The notes under the pieces were generated by a model that had not been told where the DNA came from, ran no database searches, and saw only the letters and a list, made by a program, of their open reading frames with translations. From assembly GCF_022846255.1 (NCBI RefSeq), contig NZ_AP025682.1: DNA of 64,000 nt; one strand, written 5' to 3'. The translations under genes were made by a program, and so were the position numbers. Source of the DNA: Escherichia coli. GTDB taxonomy: Bacteria > Pseudomonadota > Gammaproteobacteria > Enterobacterales > Enterobacteriaceae. Positions 2,127 through 62,125 of this stretch are shown here, piece by piece (positions within the stretch are counted from its first letter, which is position 1; each line of letters opens with the position of its first letter).

Positions 2127-2510
2127 TCAGGCCTTCTCAAGCATGGCGTGCTTCTGCAGGCTCTGGATACTCAGCGTTAAGCTCATCAGACAATTTTCAA
2201 GCTTATCGGCGTTGACGGTAATAACAGTCGGGCAATCATGGTGCCCACTCATCAAACATACTGCGGCTGTCGCTAATGCTTCTTCAGCATGATGAAGAGC
2301 ACTCCACTCTTCCTGATCCAGATGAAGATTCAACCGCAGCGATTTGTCGTGCAGTTCGCGATTCAGTTTAAAAAAGTTATCTCGTAGATGATTGCTTTCG
2401 CTGACGGACATGTATCCTTTTGCCTTCCTCAGTTGCACGTATGCGGCGAGGTCAACGCGTGCGTCGATCAACCTGTTCAGCAGATCGATTCGCTGTCTGT
2501 CAACGAACAT
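2127..2510 (-). CDS. bssR: biofilm regulator BssR (127 aa)
   Basis: ORF track 2127..2543 trimmed to internal Met (MFVDRQRIDLL) to match the 127-aa length; synteny. Confidence 0.85.
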   Translation of the reverse strand: MFVDRQRIDLLNRLIDARVDLAAYVQLRKAKGYMSVSESNHLRDNFFKLNRELHDKSLRLNLHLDQEEWSALHHAEEALATAAVCLMSGHHDCPTVITVNADKLENCLMSLTLSIQSLQKHAMLEKA

Positions 2511-2722
2511 ACTTCGATCCTCCTCTTTCCAGCCTTGTTGCAACTAAATAGTATGGCTGTTTTTTGAGCAAAATGCTGTCCAGGATCAATTCTTCACGCC
2601 GAATTAACAAAATTTACATTTCCTTCAACTCCGCCAGCGAATGAGATTGCGATACAAATTTTATCCAGAACTCTGTAGAATCCCTGCCCTGACCTTTCCT
2701 GTAACTGAATATTTTTTAAGCT

Positions 2723-4048
2723 ATGAGCAAAGTAACTCCCCAGCCGAAAATCGGCTTTGTTTCCCTTGGCTGTCCGAAAAACCTTGTCGATTCAGAGCGT
2801 ATTCTCACCGAACTACGCACTGAAGGTTATGACGTGGTACCGAGCTATGATGATGCGGACATGGTGATCGTCAACACCTGCGGCTTTATTGACAGCGCGG
2901 TACAAGAATCACTGGAAGCCATTGGTGAAGCGTTGAATGAAAACGGCAAGGTAATTGTGACCGGTTGTCTGGGGGCAAAAGAAGATCAGATCCGCGAAGT
3001 CCACCCGAAAGTGCTGGAAATCACCGGGCCTCATAGCTATGAGCAGGTTCTGGAGCACGTTCATCACTACGTGCCAAAACCGAAACACAACCCATTCCTG
3101 AGCCTGGTGCCAGAACAAGGTGTGAAACTGACGCCGCGTCATTATGCCTATCTGAAAATTTCTGAAGGCTGTAATCACCGCTGCACCTTCTGCATTATTC
3201 CGTCTATGCGCGGCGATCTGGTGAGCCGTCCGATTGGCGAAGTGTTAAGTGAAGCGAAACGTCTGGTTGATGCGGGCGTTAAAGAAATTCTGGTGATCTC
3301 GCAGGATACTTCCGCGTATGGCGTCGATGTTAAACATCGTACTGGCTTCCACAACGGCGAGCCGGTAAAAACCAGCATGGTCAGCCTGTGCGAACAGTTA
3401 TCGAAACTGGGGATCTGGACACGTCTGCACTACGTTTACCCTTATCCGCATGTGGACGACGTCATCCCACTGATGGCAGAGGGCAAAATCCTGCCGTATC
3501 TGGACATTCCGTTGCAGCACGCCAGCCCGCGCATTCTCAAACTGATGAAACGTCCGGGTTCTGTAGATCGCCAACTGGCGCGCATCAAACAGTGGCGCAA
3601 AATCTGCCCGGAACTGACCCTACGCTCAACCTTTATTGTTGGCTTCCCTGGCGAGACGGAAGAAGATTTCCAGATGCTACTCGACTTCCTGAAAGAAGCA
3701 CGTCTGGATCGCGTTGGCTGCTTTAAATACAGCCCGGTTGAAGGTGCAGACGCCAATGCCCTGCCTGACCAGGTTCCGGAAGAAGTGAAAGAAGAACGCT
3801 GGAACCGTTTCATGCAGTTGCAGCAGCAAATTTCCGCCGAGCGCCTGCAAGAGAAAGTGGGCCGTGAAATTCTGGTGATTATCGACGAAGTGGACGAAGA
3901 AGGCGCGATTGGTCGCAGCATGGCAGATGCACCGGAAATCGACGGCGCGGTTTATCTCAATGGTGAAACCAACGTTAAGCCGGGTGATATCCTGCGAGTG
4001 AAAGTCGAGCACGCCGATGAGTACGATTTGTGGGGTAGCCGGGTTTAA
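2723..4048 (+). CDS. rimO: ribosomal protein S12 methylthiotransferase RimO (radical SAM, 441 aa)
   Basis: ORF track; radical-SAM CNHRCTFC motif and C-terminal TRAM-like region. Confidence 0.95.
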
Positions 4049-4054
4049 TTAATT

Positions 4055-4084
4055 CAGGCCGGGCAAAATCATTTGTCCGGCCTG
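4055..4084. terminator. hairpin between convergent rimO and dgcI
   Basis: inverted repeat caggccgggc ... gtccggcctg in the 46-nt gap between convergent stops; no strong T-run. Confidence 0.4.
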
Positions 4085-4094
4085 CGAATAATGA

Positions 4095-5423
4095 TTACTG
4101 CCAGCTAATCTGCGCCCTGCCGTTTTTCTTACTCTTATACAGCCGCTCATCCGCCAGCATTTTCAAACGTTCAACGGTAGTACATTCATTTGAATGCGCT
4201 ACACCGATACTGGTGCTTAAATTAATGCTTCCCACCTGGAAATGAACGATTTCTTTTAGAATCGATAGCAACTCTTCCAGCGTGCCGCCAGTATAAATCA
4301 CCGCAAATTCGTCACCTCCGAAGCGGTAAACTTTACCTTTATCTACCGGGATCTGTGATTTAAGGATTTTCACCACTTTCATCAACACTTCATCGCCCAG
4401 CAAATGACCGAAGGTGTCGTTAATGTTTTTGAATTTATCGACGTCAAACAGGCACAAATAACCGCCTTTTTCCGGCAGCGCTTTTAAATCTTCGTCAAAA
4501 GATTTTCTGCCCATCGCTTTGGTCAGATCGTCCAGGAATGCCGAGTTATACATACTGTAGAGTTTTTTGACATCGGCAGCCGAAAAGAAAAGCCCGCCAT
4601 CCAGTACGCGTTCAAAATGGTTATTAATAATGGCTTCTTTCTCCACAATACCACGATTAATCACTCTGCGTACCAGATAGAGGCAACTGGCACCCGATAT
4701 CACTGCCACCAATGCGGCAAAGAAAATAATCAATGTACATACCTGAAAATAAACGTCTTTTTTATAAGCAAATACGTACAACCCGGTCGGCAAATAGGAG
4801 AAGTGCTCCATTGCTTCCGAAACGGTGAAGATGGCGTTTTTAGCGTTATATTCATCACCGGTCACCGATTTACCGTTCTTGAACAGGGAGAACATCAGGT
4901 TCTCGCTATCCATCGCCAGCGATTTTGACAGTAAAGAAAAACGTTCCAGACCAAGCAAAAATATCAGACTACGATTGTGAGTTACCGGATAGAGGTAATA
5001 GACGAAGGTTTTACCATCAAAAGAGATAAACCCTGTATTTTTGACATGTCGATACTTAACAACCTGCATAATATCTGCACAATAATTTTTCTCGAACTCC
5101 TTTACCTGAATACATTCGTCACTGGAAATCAGATAAGGACCGACATCGTACAAATAAGAGGGTGAAACCGAGTCGGCGTAAGCTGTGCGTAAGCCAACCA
5201 ACAGCTGTTCCTCCGTAGGATTTAGCGTGTTGATGAGATCAATTGCCACACTACGCCGATATTCAGCAATATTTGCCACCGCAAAAGCAGTATCAATAAC
5301 GGACTGTTTCAGGCCATACACCCGTTCCTTTACCATTTGAGTGTAGATCCCGCAGGCAACTGCTGAAATCATGATAAAAATCAGCAGACTGACTGTAAGT
5401 ACGAATTTATTGATTCTGGACAT
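4095..5423 (-). CDS. dgcI: diguanylate cyclase (GGDEF) DgcI/YliF, membrane-anchored (442 aa)
   Basis: ORF track; N-terminal TM segment, C-terminal GGDEF domain with RFGGDEF motif. Confidence 0.9.
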
Positions 5424-5430
5424 ACGTAAA

Positions 5431-7779
5431 CTACTCTTTTACTAATTTTCCACTTTTATCCCAGGCGGAGAATGGCATGGGTTTCTGGTACAGATACCCC
5501 TGAGCCTGAACACATCCTAATTTGATTAATTCACGCGCAACGTCTTCGCTCTCTACGCCTTCCGCAATCACCGGGATCCGGTTATAGCGTGCCAGATCGA
5601 AAATAATGCGCACAATTTTTCCCGCAGTACCGAAAATATCGCCGGTAAATTGCGAATCCACCTTTATACTGTCTGGATTAATTTCATAAAAACGTTTCAG
5701 GTTTGACAAACCGGTGCCAAAGTCATCAATCGATACCCGTACCCCTTGTTTACGCAGTTGTTCAATATTGAGATAGAAATGTTCATTAATTCGCTCGATC
5801 ACGGTTTCGGTGATCTCAACACAAAGGCTGTTCGCCTTCAGGCCATTTTCTTTCATGATGGTAGTAAAACGCTCATGAAAGTGTGGTTCGTTTAACTGCC
5901 AGGGCGAAACATTAATATGCAGTAAGAAATCATCCTTCAGCGACGCACGCTGACTAAAATGTCTGAATTCACCCATCGCGGTTTTAATAATTTGATAGCC
6001 CAGCTCATTGATAAACCCGATATCTTCAGCAATGGTAATGAACTTCAGCGGTGAAATAATCCCCCGCTCCGCAGACACCCAACGGCACAACGCCTCCGCG
6101 CCCAAAATGGTGCGGGTGTTAATATCAACAATCGGTTGATAGACCAGGAATAGTTCGCCAATTTCCATTGCATGGCGAATATTACGCGCAATCCAGATAT
6201 TCTCTTCTATTTCGTTGAGTTTCGCATCATCACAGAAAATAAACTCTGAGAACATATGGTTGCGGATACTGGAAATCGCCAGTTTCAGCTTTTCTGCGTA
6301 ACTCCAGGCGTTTTCCCCCTGCAAAGGTTCACAAATAGCAGACTTATGGATGCGCAGATTGCGGTAGCCAAAACTGCTGTCAAAATCGTTTACCGTCGCT
6401 ATCTTACGGGTAAACGTCTGTACATTTTCCCGGCACAGGAGTAAATAGAGATCGGCATTAAATGTCACGATATCGCAGCATTGCGCATATTTCTCGGCAA
6501 TTCGCTGACACAATTTCCTGACGATTTTATTGCGTTCATCAACACCAAACACCGCTTCCACAGCTTCCAGACCACACAGTTTGATGATCCCCACAGCCAG
6601 ATACTGATTATTGTTGGACTCAATAATCGCCATATTTTTAATAAAACCGCTTTCCTGATCGTAAGAGATCAGCGAGAGCAATTTATTTGCCCGTTCAATT
6701 TCAGCATCTTTCATTTCCGCGATCGAATTTTTGATGCTGATAATCTCTTTCGCATCGCCTTCACGAATCTTCAGGGCCTCGATTTGATCCGTAGAGTCAG
6801 GCAAAAACGCCAGCGTATTGACCAAATCTGTCATTTCAGAAAATTGCCGACGGAACACTCGAGTGGTCATTAAATAAACCACCAGCAATACGATAATAAT
6901 GAAAGCAAACGGCAGATAAAAAAGTTTATCTGATGCGTTCAATAAATTACCACCAGGATAATAAAAATAGATTTCGAATAATGCGTTGTTTGGCACCGCT
7001 GATGTTTTTTCAATATATTCCGTATCGACAGAATCAATAATATTATAATTACCTTCGCTATTATAAATAATCAATTTTTCACGAGCGAGTTGATTCTTAG
7101 CAATGATCTCATGACCTTGCTTTAAAAATAGAACTTCATCATTAGCGCTGATGTGATCAAGATACTCGTTCAGATATCGCCAGTTTAAATCGACATGAAT
7201 TTTATCTACCGCTAACAAATCATGATCTTTGCCGTTGATGTGTAGCGTAAAAGAGATACATTTTTTACCCGGACGATCAAAGCAATTGTATGCCGGGTTC
7301 CAGCTGTTGTTAGAGTCATCTGAAGCCATCGACCACGGTCGTTTCGATGGGTTAAAATCGGCAAAAATAACCCGCCCTGACTCGTCGACAAGCGGTCCAT
7401 TTACTTGTTCCTGATGATAAACAACGATTTTATTATTCGCCCTCCGCGAAAAGAGATAATATTTATTATCATCAAGTACCAGTCCCACCGAGTCTAAAAA
7501 TGGCATCATTTCCATTTTCAGAATTACGGCGCGTTGAATCTCCTCTGTATTTTTTAATAAATACAGTGAGTCCTTTAATGTCAGGGCCGAACGTTCAATA
7601 TCTTTAAAGAAATAGCCAACGTTTTTCTGAATAAGTTCAAAGCGGCTATCGGCACGTTTTACCGCGCGTTCCGATACCAGTTGATAGTTAATGATGAAAA
7701 AAAGACCAATAAATGACAGTGCTGCCAATAAAAATAAAATTATCAGCCTTATCTTTATCTTTTCGTATAAACTCAGCAT
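5431..7779 (-). CDS. pdeI: c-di-GMP phosphodiesterase (EAL) PdeI/YliE with periplasmic sensor region (782 aa)
   Basis: ORF track; TM segments flanking a large N-terminal domain; C-terminal EAL domain; synteny with dgcI. Confidence 0.9.
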
Positions 7780-7955
7780 GTTAATACATTTAACAAAATA
7801 ACTGTCTGAACGCTGTGCCGCTGCAAAATAGTCCCTTGCTGCGGCTTTTTAACCAAATTACCCGATTCTACAAAATCAGCAGAAAGTTACAACACTTGCT
7901 TAGGGCAATAATTTCCTGTGAGGTGATTACCCTTTCAAGCAATATTCAAACGTAA

Positions 7956-8867
7956 CTATCCTTTAATTTTCGGATCCAGCGCATCGCGTAAACCATCGCC
8001 CAACAAATTGAACGCCAGTACGGTCAGAAAAATAGCCAGGGCCGGAAAAACAGCGACATGCGGCGCGATAACCATATCCGCTCGTGCCTCATTGAGCATT
8101 GCTCCCCACTCTGGTGTCGGCGGCTGCGCACCGAGGCCGAGAAATGACAGGCTGGCGGCAGAGATAATCGAGGTGCCAATGCGCATGGTGAAAAACACCA
8201 CGATAGAAGAGACGGTCCCAGGCAAGATATGACGCAACAAAATGGTCATATCGCTGGCACCAATACTGCGTGCTGACTCGATAAAGGTTTGCTGTTTCAA
8301 CACCAGCGTGTTGCCGCGCACCAGCCGGGCAAACGCGGGGATGGAAAAAATGGCGACTGCGATAATCACGTTAGCAATGCCGCTTCCCAACACCGCAACA
8401 ACAGCGATCGCCAGTAAAATACCCGGGAAGGCAAACAGCACATCGCAAATACGCATGATCAGCCGATCCCACCAGCCTTCATAATATCCAGCCAGCAAGC
8501 CCAGCAACGTCCCGATCGCCGCACCGATAAATACGGCAAACACGCCCGCCGCCAGCGAGATTTGCGCACCAACCAGGACACGGCTGAAAATGTCGCGCCC
8601 CAGTGAATCGACACCAAACCAGTGCTGCAAAGAAGGTCCGTTATTCAGATTGTCATAATCAAAATAATTTTCGGCGTCATAGGGAGCGATCCAGCGTGCA
8701 AAAATGGCCACCACAATCAATAAAATAACGAACAATGCGGCGGTCATCGCCATATGCTGACGGCGAAATCGTCGCCAGAATTCATGCCACGGTGTACGTA
8801 CCTGGTCAGGTTTGACCAGTGGCATGGCGTTTAACACCGCCTGACGTCGCCAGTTAAATAGTCGCAT
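7956..8867 (-). CDS. gsiD: glutathione ABC transporter permease GsiD (303 aa)
   Basis: ORF track; Dpp/Opp-type permease; synteny. Confidence 0.92.
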
Positions 8868-41667: not shown

Positions 41668-41744
41668 GTAGGACGGATAAGGCGTTTACGCCGCATCCGG
41701 CAACAGATGCCTGATGCGACGCTACCGCGTCTTATCAGACCTAC
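41668..41744. repeat. BIME (two REP units, short linker), with a further partial REP about 20 nt downstream
   Basis: gtaggacggataaggcgtttacgccgcatccggca - acagat - gcctgatgcgacgctaccgcgtcttatcagacctac. Confidence 0.85.
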
Positions 41745-60987: not shown

Positions 60988-61977
60988 TTAGCCACCAATG
61001 TACGATAAGTTTTGCGTAATACCGGTGTTATTTTGATGCAGGAAATGGGTCTGTTTTTTCTCCCGCAGCGCCGCTGAAATACGCGCTTCCAGCGCCTGTT
61101 GCTGGGTATCGTCTTCCAGCAGATCGCGCAGGTTAACGCCGCCTTCACCAAACAGGCAGAGATGGAGTTTACCAATGGAGGAAACGCGCAGGCGGTTGCA
61201 AGTGGCGCAGAAGTCTTTTTCATACGGCATGATAAGGCCAATCTCTCCGGCGTAATCCGGATGACAAAAGACTTGCGCGGGACCGTCGCTGCGTTGACGT
61301 AATTGGTGGATCCAGCCGCGACGCAGTAGCTCGTCACGCAGAACCTGACCAGAGATGTGATGCTTACGGAAGAGCTCGCTGCCCTCGCCCGTTTCCATCA
61401 ATTCGATGAAACGCAGCTGGATAGGGCGATGCTGGATCCAGTTCAGAAAGGTGTCGAGCTGATGATGATTAACATCACGCATCAGCACGGTATTGACTTT
61501 GACCTTCTCAAAACCGGCCTCAAATGCAGCATCGATTCCTGCCATGACCTGGTTGAATTTATCCTGCCCGGTAATGGCATGAAACTGGCGAGCGTCAAGG
61601 CTATCAACGCTGACGTTGATGCCAGTAAGTCCAGCATCGCGCCAGTTCGCCACATCGCGTTCCAGACGGTAACCATTGGTGGTGACCGCAATCTGGCGGA
61701 TAGCGTCGTTTTCCCGCACAGCGGCGATGATATCGGTAAAGTCGCGGCGTAAAGATGGCTCACCGCCCGTCAGACGGACTTTTTCGGTGCCAAGACTGGC
61801 GAAGGCGCGCGTAACCCGGCGAATTTCATCGACGGTAAGAAAGCCTTTATTGGTGACGCCGCTCGGTTTGTAGCCATCCGGCAGGCAGTAGGTGCAACGA
61901 AAGTTACACACATCGGTAATCGACAGGCGCAAGTAGTAAAACTTACGCGCAAATGCATCAGTCAGTTGTGAAGCCAT
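60988..61977 (-). CDS. moaA: GTP 3',8-cyclase MoaA (radical SAM, 329 aa)
   Basis: ORF track 60988..62058 trimmed to [31 protein letters not shown]; the longer ORF would read through the leader. Confidence 0.93.
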
Positions 61978-61984
61978 GTACACC

Positions 61985-62125
61985 TTTCCAGATACGGGAG
62001 GCGAAGTCATTTCTTCCTTCGCCCTGGTGGCAATCTTTACAAGCATTGTCACGGCCAAAGCACCGTATCAGTTGACCCAGGTGCAGAGGCTAGAGTGTTT
62101 AGTGGTTAAGCCGATACTAGCGTGT
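61985..62125 (-). ncRNA. Moco riboswitch (moaA 5' leader RNA)
   Basis: minus-strand sequence ...aaacactctagcctctgcacctgggtcaactgatacggtgctttggccgtgacaatgcttgtaaagattgccaccagggcgaaggaagaaatgacttcgcctcc... immediately upstream of the moaA ATG; boundaries approximate. Confidence 0.7.

Follow-up and report, generated by a model that had tools for sequence, protein, structure and literature searches.

The adjacent pdeI and dgcI genes of Escherichia coli as a candidate make-and-break unit for c-di-GMP

Introduction

When a gene for an enzyme that breaks down c-di-GMP directly precedes one for an enzyme that makes it, the question arises whether the two products act as a unit and, if so, which signals control them. 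Such a locus lies in a 64,000-nt stretch of Escherichia coli DNA (contig NZ_AP025682.1), hereafter called the window. A preliminary description, made from the sequence, identified the genes as pdeI and dgcI and proposed a locally coupled module with an input that could not be deduced. Here, we examine the genes, their domains and active sites, their junction and their relatives in other genomes and on plasmids, and weigh the explanations for their adjacency.

Results

A core-genome pair under purifying selection

The proposed tandem of a membrane EAL gene followed by a membrane GGDEF gene was found exactly as described, in the form of two minus-strand open reading frames on whose nature Pfam and hydropathy agree (Table 1), and the ATG of dgcI (5423) indeed begins 8 nt past the last base of the pdeI stop codon. 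The two genes are the core-genome pair pdeI (yliE) and dgcI (yliF) of E. coli: RefSeq gives these names to the same coordinates in a 99.9% identical genome, the pair region shares 97.1% DNA identity with b0833/b0834 of MG1655, and the order gsiD-pdeI-dgcI-rimO is the same as in that strain. All but one of 5426 complete E. coli genomes (5425) carry the pair between gsiD and rimO. Both genes are under purifying selection, with dN/dS values of ~0.04 relative to K-12 and <=0.08 relative to E. fergusonii. The observation is therefore real and confirmed but ordinary. The pair is already annotated, both products are among the 29 catalogued GGDEF/EAL proteins of E. coli, and most of its description has been published, making it minor as a discovery.

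Table 1. Features of the pdeI-dgcI locus, with positions counted from the first nucleotide of the window.
Feature	Position	Strand	Description
rimO-dgcI spacer	4049..4094	.	46 nt between convergent genes; strong hairpin
dgcI (yliF)	4095..5423	-	442-aa ORF, ATG start; inner-membrane diguanylate cyclase; Pfam GAPES2 and GGDEF; RefSeq
DgcI GGDEF domain	4113..4541	-	aa 295-437; Pfam and TIGR00254; GGDEF at aa 369-373
DgcI periplasmic GAPES2 domain	4737..5348	-	aa 26-229
pdeI-dgcI spacer	5424..5430	-	7 nt (TTTACGT) between pdeI stop TAG (5433-5431) and dgcI ATG (5423)
pdeI (yliE)	5431..7779	-	782-aa ORF, ATG start; inner-membrane c-di-GMP phosphodiesterase; Pfam CHASE9 and EAL; RefSeq
PdeI EAL domain	5479..6186	-	aa 532-767; full catalytic and metal-binding residue set
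PdeI degenerate GGDEF-fold domain	6235..6645	-	about aa 379-515
PdeI periplasmic sensor domain	6916..7680	-	about aa 34-288; Pfam CHASE9 at aa 35-150
Candidate sigma-70 promoter of the pair	7865..7892	-	TTGTAA, 16 nt, TAGAAT; in the 176-nt gsiD-pdeI spacer

PdeI combines an intact EAL site with a degenerate GGDEF fold

PdeI is composed of a first transmembrane segment, a periplasmic dCache-like sensor (CHASE9), a second transmembrane segment, a helical linker, a degenerate GGDEF fold and an EAL domain, with hydropathy placing the two membrane segments around a periplasmic domain of ~255 aa. The EAL domain matches PF00563 over its full length (from position 2 to 236 in a model of 236 positions) with an E value of 2.6e-69 and a score of 233.7 bits (cut-off 31.3), can be aligned to solved active EAL domains and contains the motifs YQPIV (547-551), EALCR (562-566), INVSP (622-626), EITET (655-659), DDFGTG (685-690), IKVD (705-708), AEGVES (739-744) and QAQGY (758-762). 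Within these motifs, Q548, E562/R566, N623, E655/T657/E658, D685/D686, K706/D708, E740/E743 and Q760 are invariant in eight homologues, down to 31% identity. Judged by these residues, the catalytic site is intact.

Between the membrane and the EAL domain, PdeI carries a GGDEF-fold domain that had been overlooked in the preliminary description. It was established by its fold and by extended NCBIfam GepA and DosP alignments rather than by Pfam, whose GGDEF model gave no match in this region even at E 10, ruling out a GGDEF domain at the sequence level. The fold is present but the GG(D/E)EF motif is not: its position is occupied by FNADLY (aa 440-445) and, across lineages, by FNADLY, LSSDLY, LSPYKY, ISDKRF or LSPTMI, and the metal-binding Asp positions are substituted (IIKLCGLE). 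By its motifs, this domain is degenerate and catalytically dead. The residue G412, which has featured in previous studies of PdeI, is present in the window protein.

DgcI has an intact GGDEF site without an inhibitory site

DgcI is built more simply, with a periplasmic dCache-like sensor (GAPES2) between two transmembrane segments and a C-terminal GGDEF domain; its periplasmic part spans ~200 aa (about aa 29-228) by hydropathy. The GGDEF domain is recognized by PF00990 (E 2.9e-25; 89.4 bits, cut-off 23.8) and TIGR00254 (91.6 bits, cut-off 37.4), is alignable to DgcZ and DosC and has both metal-/GTP-binding motif segments (aa 326-344 and aa 423-436). Its catalytic and binding residues are kept in five aligned lineages, with substitutions at non-catalytic positions only, and on this evidence its active site is intact. 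An RxxD inhibitory site, common among diguanylate cyclases but not defining for them, is absent from the position five residues before GGDEF, where DgcI has VDKG (aa 360-363). An independently compiled residue table for strain CFT073 likewise lists no I-site for yliF and agrees on the catalytic residues of the pair (PMC3484386). The recommended check of catalytic residues thus came out positively for both enzymes and, since the EAL and GGDEF motifs are intact, motif degeneration does not argue against their activity.

Two predicted double-Cache sensors without sequence similarity

The suggestion of a CSS-motif domain in PdeI was not borne out. Pfam gave no match to PF12792 at E values up to 0.1 and the CSS tripeptide is absent from both PdeI and DgcI, which rules out this reading; the periplasmic domain of PdeI is instead CHASE9 (E 6e-63), with a dCache-like fold, and that of DgcI is GAPES2 (E 7e-140). 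Both sensors are predicted to be double-Cache folds, in which a long N-terminal helix and two PAS-like alpha/beta modules are positioned between two transmembrane helices. At the sequence level, Pfam reports only CHASE9 and GAPES2, with no match to its dCache models and no ligand-binding motif. Invariant residues comprise the Cys pair C166/C174 and W160 in PdeI and N51, E54-Y55-R56, Y90, C104, C115 and Y142 in DgcI. Small molecules are the typical ligands of the dCache class, so the input is not wholly opaque: the preliminary view that it could not be deduced holds for the actual ligands but not for their probable class. A profile-profile comparison of the two periplasmic domains detected no similarity (probability 0.2%, E 0.37), which speaks against their common ancestry and, therefore, gives no indication of a shared signal.

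The junction is compatible with co-transcription

The short spacer between the genes forms no hairpin (fold z-score -0.57), and no terminator-like site was found at the junction. Upstream of pdeI, a consensus scan, in which the number of such sites was not above chance, returned a candidate sigma-70 promoter that lies inside CTGATTTTGTAGAATC, the sole block of the gsiD-pdeI spacer conserved with E. fergusonii. Downstream of dgcI, the spacer towards rimO contains a hairpin that likely marks the 3' end of the pair's transcript; RNA folding predicts -20.3 kcal/mol (z -4.5) for its minus-strand form and -25.2 kcal/mol (z -5.0) for its plus-strand form. The hairpin has no T-run, and its terminator function is putative. 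With both genes on one strand, a short spacer, no terminator between them and a terminator-like structure after dgcI, the arrangement is that of an operon. Based on spacing and conserved adjacency, pdeI and dgcI are probably co-transcribed.

The pairing is retained in distant and mobile relatives

The pair is syntenic in E. fergusonii, where the spacer measures 9 nt. Gene order, tight spacing (-11 to +39 nt between the pdeI-like and the following dgcI-like gene) and catalytic residues are also retained in at least four more lineages whose identity to the window pair is only 23-41%. Among them, three distant PdeI homologues (P0049, P0061 and P0077) are each encoded directly before a GAPES2-GGDEF gene in mobile contexts. 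IncHI1B plasmids carry a pdeI-like gene, a dgcI-like gene overlapping it by 11 nt, bcsA and bcsB in that order, and a Salmonella IncFII plasmid contains the pair with a 9-nt spacer; more generally, the plasmid pairs of Escherichia and Salmonella are often found immediately 5' of the cellulose synthase genes bcsA-bcsB. The occurrence of mobile relatives near accessory cellulose clusters has already been described in a preprint (bioRxiv 10.1101/2025.05.09.653004). Order and offset are maintained in all 19 plasmids common to the hit lists for the two genes, and the identity matrices of PdeI and DgcI mirror one another across lineages. In some plasmids, the pdeI-like gene has been removed by IS1, leaving the dgcI-like gene beside bcsA.

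These distant lineages were found by an exhaustive HMMER search, as a word-indexed homologue search returned close Escherichia sequences only. Among 1.84 billion representative proteins, the exhaustive search yielded only 54 matches which, together with the plasmid counts, show that the pair is almost confined to Escherichia. Its GC content (0.417) is lower than that of the rest of the window (0.523), with values of 0.305-0.352 in the mobile copies. Because the pair is both AT-rich and almost restricted to Escherichia, its composition and distribution suggest a foreign origin.

Discussion

Taken as a whole, these observations are explained best, and in our estimate rather probably, by a pair that acts as a signal-gated make-and-break unit, a reading drawn from the genes and their relatives. 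PdeI would then serve as the sink, its intact EAL domain hydrolysing c-di-GMP, and DgcI as the source, its GGDEF domain making c-di-GMP without product inhibition at an RxxD site. Small-molecule or possibly redox signals in the periplasm would tip the pair towards synthesis or breakdown, and the EAL domain of PdeI may be under the control of its dead GGDEF neighbour, by analogy with other GGDEF-EAL phosphodiesterases. The probable ancestor of the pair is a mobile AT-rich cassette with a c-di-GMP-dependent exopolysaccharide synthase as its putative output, given that many plasmid copies are situated just upstream of bcsA-bcsB; no exopolysaccharide genes are found beside the chromosomal pair. 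The comparative data thus support the coupling originally proposed in the sense of a conserved gene unit, but do not extend to a complex between the two proteins or to a c-di-GMP pool of their own. The value left in this locus resides in the comparative picture of strict pairing, a PdeI whose EAL domain is intact and whose GGDEF motif is dead and not conserved, invariant Cys pairs in the dCache-like sensors and an AT-rich foreign origin, which offers concrete and cheap ways to settle the function of the pair.

It is possible, although we consider it unlikely, that PdeI and DgcI are independent enzymes, adjacent by shared descent, which have their own promoters and signals and act uncoupled on the global c-di-GMP pool. 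In K-12, yliF expression is very low and DgcI escaped detection in a survey that detected 25 of the 29 GGDEF/EAL proteins (PMC5635695), so that PdeI and DgcI may not be present together under laboratory conditions. Moreover, gSELEX revealed binding peaks of the RpoN and FliA holoenzymes at the yliE/yliF junction (PMC8743547, PMC5493296), which would permit dgcI to be transcribed apart from pdeI. Motif searches run to account for these peaks identified no sigma-28-like site near the junction and a sigma-54-like TGGCACCGGTTTGTCA at positions 5704-5719, 285 nt upstream of the dgcI ATG. The latter is simply the stretch that encodes DDFGTG and is treated as unproven; across the window, sigma-54-like matches are no more frequent than by chance, with 273 found against 329 expected from shuffled sequence. 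Independence would also be in line with the unrelated sequences of the two sensors and with the IS1-truncated plasmid variants, in which the dgcI-like gene alone remains. However, adjacency, order and tight spacing persist at 23-41% identity in unrelated genomic contexts and in every plasmid shared by the two hit lists, a degree of pairing not expected without selection on the unit. In addition, both genes are upregulated at 37 C in CFT073 (PMC12890032), and BolA raises the expression of both (PMC5605933).

Published data on the net effect of PdeI on c-di-GMP conflict. Its overexpression was reported to increase c-di-GMP levels ~11-fold (PMC11651652), which is unexpected of a simple phosphodiesterase, whereas in another study pdeI overexpression blocked phage N4, like that of five other phosphodiesterases (PMC7553319). 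These results would be reconciled if PdeI and DgcI formed a physical sensor complex in which the dead GGDEF domain of PdeI gates DgcI, such that overproduced PdeI raises c-di-GMP through DgcI, and the EAL domain lowers it in other settings. In this scenario, C166/C174 of PdeI and C104/C115 of DgcI would let both proteins respond to one redox or disulfide signal, in the manner of CSS-domain phosphodiesterases, and the pair would represent a mobile regulatory unit that plugs into accessory cellulose synthase systems. Taken jointly, these propositions appear improbable.

More doubtful still is the notion that PdeI in effect raises c-di-GMP, with its divergent GGDEF domain serving as the cyclase, in which case the pair would not be a make-and-break unit. 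Both the increase in c-di-GMP upon overexpression and a positive single-cell correlation were lost in a G412S variant (PMC11651652), and the window protein has this glycine. However, the position of the catalytic motif is freely variable among PdeI homologues, the metal-binding Asp residues are replaced and Pfam recognizes no GGDEF domain, while every catalytic residue of the EAL site is in place and invariant, and the resistance to N4, a phage that requires c-di-GMP, matches the effect of known phosphodiesterases (PMC7553319). The rise could also be indirect, for instance via chromosomal dgcI. G412S itself was isolated by Reinders et al. (2016), as relayed by later reports (PMC11651652, PMC12890032), as a suppressor that restores motility and lowers c-di-GMP in a pdeH mutant, a phenotype that, in this second-hand form, fits a release of EAL autoinhibition. 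Finally, that PdeI and/or DgcI are enzymatically dead receptors or trigger proteins is highly improbable, even though PdeI has one dead domain and single deletions cause few phenotypes (PMC3484386), as the signature residues of both catalytic domains, EAL in PdeI and GGDEF in DgcI, are all present and conserved under purifying selection, the yliF deletion phenotype is complemented by the foreign cyclase WspR (PMC3484386) and pdeI overexpression acts like that of an active phosphodiesterase (PMC7553319).

The make-and-break unit favoured here has a close counterpart in the DosC-DosP (DgcO-PdeO) operon, which also combines the genes for a cyclase and a phosphodiesterase that have separate sensor domains. 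DosP, a top structural and NCBIfam match of PdeI, likewise has a degenerate GGDEF domain before its EAL domain. In the Dos system, both proteins are soluble haem-based sensors of oxygen and form a complex, and the cyclase gene comes first, whereas PdeI and DgcI are membrane proteins with periplasmic dCache-like sensors and the phosphodiesterase gene in the leading position. The CSS-domain phosphodiesterases PdeC, PdeB, PdeD, PdeG and PdeN resemble PdeI in having two transmembrane segments, a periplasmic domain and an EAL domain, and their conserved periplasmic Cys pair has a counterpart in C166/C174. PdeI differs from them by lacking the CSS-motif domain and by possessing a dCache-like sensor and an additional degenerate GGDEF domain. 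Compared with the GGDEF-EAL tandem enzymes of the PA0575 and MorA type from Pseudomonas aeruginosa, its GGDEF half has neither the motif nor the metal-binding residues.

The nearest relatives are the K-12 orthologues PdeI (YliE, b0833) and DgcI (YliF, b0834), which share the protein lengths of 782 and 442 aa, the 7-nt spacer, the gsiD and rimO flanks and the Pfam architecture. The window proteins differ from them by nine (PdeI) and six (DgcI) amino acid substitutions, all of which spare the catalytic motifs, and the upstream spacer by a 1-nt deletion and substitutions. The plasmid-borne YliE/YliF homologues near bcsA2-4 in Escherichia (bioRxiv 10.1101/2025.05.09.653004), on IncHI1B and IncFII replicons, are more distant (23-41% identity; GC content of 30-35% against 42% for the window pair), yet they have the same order, architecture and catalytic motifs and, as in the window pair, conserved periplasmic Cys pairs.

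Identity and surroundings of the gene pair

Both genes are already known. In K-12 (MG1655), b0833 and b0834 are annotated in the same order as "putative cyclic di-GMP phosphodiesterase PdeI" and "putative diguanylate cyclase DgcI", and the 4.1-kb stretch harboring them was found by megablast in 5,425 of 5,426 complete E. coli genomes, annotated as pdeI and dgcI throughout. The window pair shares 97.1% DNA identity with K-12, the 9 amino-acid substitutions in PdeI and 6 in DgcI leaving the catalytic motifs untouched. Two long minus-strand reading frames in the ORF listing exactly match the gene limits given in the preliminary description, whose count of 8 nt between the genes is acceptable, with seven nucleotides (TTTACGT) separating the pdeI stop codon (TAG, 5433-5431) from the dgcI ATG. 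Over its first 32 kb, from dacC to glnH, the window agrees gene by gene with the closest genome's annotation and is ordinary E. coli core chromosome. The biofilm regulator gene bssR lies two genes away from the pair. An Rfam scan of the window gave only two matches, a Moco riboswitch upstream of moaA and naRNA4, neither of them within the pdeI-dgcI region or its vicinity.

Features of the pdeI-dgcI locus and other elements of the window (nucleotide positions refer to the window, residues to the respective protein)
Feature	Position	Strand	Description
pdeI	7779..5431	-	long ORF, 782 aa
dgcI	5423..4095	-	long ORF, 442 aa
gsiD	8867..7956	-	flanking gene, same strand as pair
rimO	2723..4048		flanking gene, convergent with pair
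bssR (yliH)	2127-2543	-	ORF call, TTG start at 2543, 138 aa; RefSeq 2127-2510, 127 aa
rimO/dgcI spacer	4049-4094		46 nt, hairpin AGGCCGG...CCGGCCT
Candidate pdeI promoter	7892..7865	-	sigma-70-like, TTGTAA-16-TAGAAT
gsiD-pdeI spacer hairpin	7817-7845	-	-15.9 kcal/mol, z -3.1
Sigma-54-type motif in pdeI	5704-5719	-	TGGCACCGGTTTGTCA, 2 mismatches
Moco riboswitch	61965-62109	-	Rfam, 103 bits
naRNA4	41671-41741	+	Rfam, 72.7 bits
PdeI CHASE9	residues 35-150		Pfam, E 6e-63
PdeI EAL	residues 532-767		Pfam, E 3e-69
DgcI GAPES2	residues 26-229		Pfam, E 7e-140
DgcI GGDEF	residues 295-437		Pfam, E 3e-25

Catalytic domains and the sign of the PdeI effect

All EAL signatures (YQP, EALxR, the N of INVSP, EITE, DDFGTG, KxD, EGVE and QG) were found in PdeI, align to solved active EAL domains and are invariant across eight homologues with identities down to 31%. 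DgcI contains GGDEF at residues 369-373, the upstream DxD..K..N..D block and the C-terminal K/R pair; its RxxD inhibitory site is absent, with VDKG at this position. A residue table for E. coli CFT073 leads to the same conclusions on the motifs (PMC3484386). Because these residues are present, the motif degeneracy that had been named as evidence against a module making and breaking c-di-GMP is not seen in the EAL domain of PdeI or the GGDEF domain of DgcI.

The preliminary description overlooked the ~220 PdeI residues between TM2 and EAL. This region has no Pfam match even at an E-value of 10; the NCBIfam models GepA and DosP, which represent GGDEF-EAL enzymes, align to PdeI from residue 378/388 onward. 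Based on an AlphaFold2 model built from an 8-sequence alignment (mean pLDDT 75.7 overall, about 68-82 within the middle domain), the region is predicted to adopt a GGDEF fold. The motif position reads FNADLY in the window protein and LSSDLY, LSPYKY, ISDKRF or LSPTMI in other lineages, so that this predicted fold lacks a conserved active site and represents a dead GGDEF domain.

Overexpression of PdeI leads to phage N4 resistance, like that of other phosphodiesterases (PMC7553319), and G412S is described as a c-di-GMP-lowering suppressor in the citing passages of PMC11651652 and PMC12890032. PMC11651652, in contrast, reports that PdeI raises c-di-GMP and terms it a synthetase; the non-conserved motif of its GGDEF fold and the invariance of its EAL site speak against direct synthesis. 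The reported rise may instead come about indirectly, for instance through DgcI.

Periplasmic sensor domains

Hydropathy analysis places two transmembrane segments in each protein, enclosing ~255 periplasmic residues in PdeI and ~200 in DgcI, consistent with the membrane location and large periplasmic N-terminal domain proposed previously. The suggested CSS-motif domain was not found in a Pfam scan of either protein, PdeI containing CHASE9 instead. Both sensors look like double-Cache (dCache) domains in their predicted folds, a likeness missed earlier; profile-profile comparison detected no similarity between the two. PdeI has an invariant cysteine pair (C166/C174), as does DgcI (C104/C115, together with an N..EYR motif). 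The predicted fold class points to small-molecule binding, which softens the earlier view that the input signal cannot be deduced.

Conservation of the pair as a unit

E. fergusonii maintains the order gsiD-pdeI-dgcI-rimO with a 9-nt spacer, at 70% (PdeI) and 78% (DgcI) protein identity. An exhaustive HMMER search of 1.84 billion representative proteins with PdeI residues 1-533 returned only 54 hits, mostly Escherichia fragments and a few homologues at 22-32% identity, and a GAPES2-GGDEF gene directly follows each of the distant homologues inspected. These pairs adjoin TraI, UvrD and integrase genes in one context and IS200 and a bcsA gene in another, or lie among IS66 copies on a Rep3 plasmid. 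Among the plasmid records searched, 106 contain the GAPES2 sensor (105 from Escherichia, 1 from Salmonella) and 70 the PdeI sensor (69 and 1); in all 19 plasmids shared between the matches listed for each, the two lie on one strand and their offset is constant. On IncHI1B plasmids, a pdeI-like gene and then a dgcI-like gene (11-nt overlap) are followed by bcsA and bcsB, and a group II intron separates bcsB from bcsC. The pair on a Salmonella IncFII plasmid has a 9-nt spacer containing a Shine-Dalgarno sequence and lies beside sugar-utilisation genes. Between lineages, identity ranges from 29-37% for PdeI and 32-42% for DgcI, with mirrored identity matrices, and both sets of catalytic motifs are retained in every lineage aligned. 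Both window genes evolve faster than their neighbors, yet under purifying selection (dN/dS ~0.04 against K-12, <=0.08 against E. fergusonii).

Several variants were noted. In three IncHI1B plasmids (L011, L012, L013), ltrA, encoding the group II intron reverse transcriptase/maturase, lies between bcsB and bcsC, downstream of the pair. In Rep3 plasmid contigs from two metagenome samples (L008, 6001-8304, and L009), the pdeI-like gene is identically split into three ORFs (CHASE9, middle and EAL parts), followed by an intact dgcI-like gene. Damaged E. coli alleles include a frameshifted DgcI of 399 aa, truncated after residue 395 and representing a cluster of 1305 sequences, a PdeI truncation at residue 445, and internal deletions of the periplasmic domain or N-terminal truncations (DgcI P0014, P0016, P0020, P0024, P0041; PdeI P0004, P0005). 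Both window copies are intact.

The pdeI/dgcI junction shows no secondary structure (z -0.57). The spacer between the convergent rimO and dgcI genes forms a strong hairpin (-20.3 kcal/mol, z -4.5, on one strand and -25.2 kcal/mol, z -5.0, on the other) with no T-run, a possible shared bidirectional terminator. The candidate pdeI promoter sits in the sole block of the upstream spacer conserved with E. fergusonii. Downstream of it lies a hairpin that lacks sequence conservation in E. fergusonii and whose loop, relative to K-12, carries a 1-nt deletion and an A-to-T substitution; K-12 has AGGGAC-N5-TTGCA here, a sigma-54-like GG-N10-GC, which becomes GG-N9-GC in the window. Sigma-54-like motifs occur at chance level in the window. 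The one inside pdeI, which precedes the dgcI ATG by about 285 nt, also codes for DDFGTGLS of the EAL domain.

The comparative evidence is stronger than these local signals, and the pair is a conserved unit. Against a single unit count the gSELEX peaks of RpoN and FliA holoenzymes at the yliE/yliF junction (PMC8743547, PMC5493296), where dgcI may have a promoter of its own, the undetectability of DgcI in K-12 (PMC5635695) and one plasmid with a dgcI-like gene alone after an IS1 insertion. The locally coupled module proposed earlier is partly supported: the two-gene unit stands, in the same order across lineages, whereas local coupling is a hypothesis.

Origin and relation to known systems

GC content is 41.7% in the pair and 52.3% elsewhere in the window, and it lies at 30.5-35.2% in the plasmid or mobile copies of the pair (L005, L006, L008, L011 and L016). 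Low GC and near-restriction to Escherichia together indicate a probable old acquisition of an AT-rich cassette, and the chromosomal pair looks like such foreign DNA, partly ameliorated. Putative silencing of such DNA by H-NS would fit its low laboratory expression and its reported induction at 37 C (PMC12890032). Plasmid homologues of YliE (PdeI) and YliF (DgcI) have been described previously, as has their association with accessory bcs clusters (bioRxiv 10.1101/2025.05.09.653004); beyond this known system, our analysis adds a small residue, namely the conserved cysteine pairs, the likely placement of GAPES2 among dCache domains and a proposed way to reconcile the conflicting results on PdeI.
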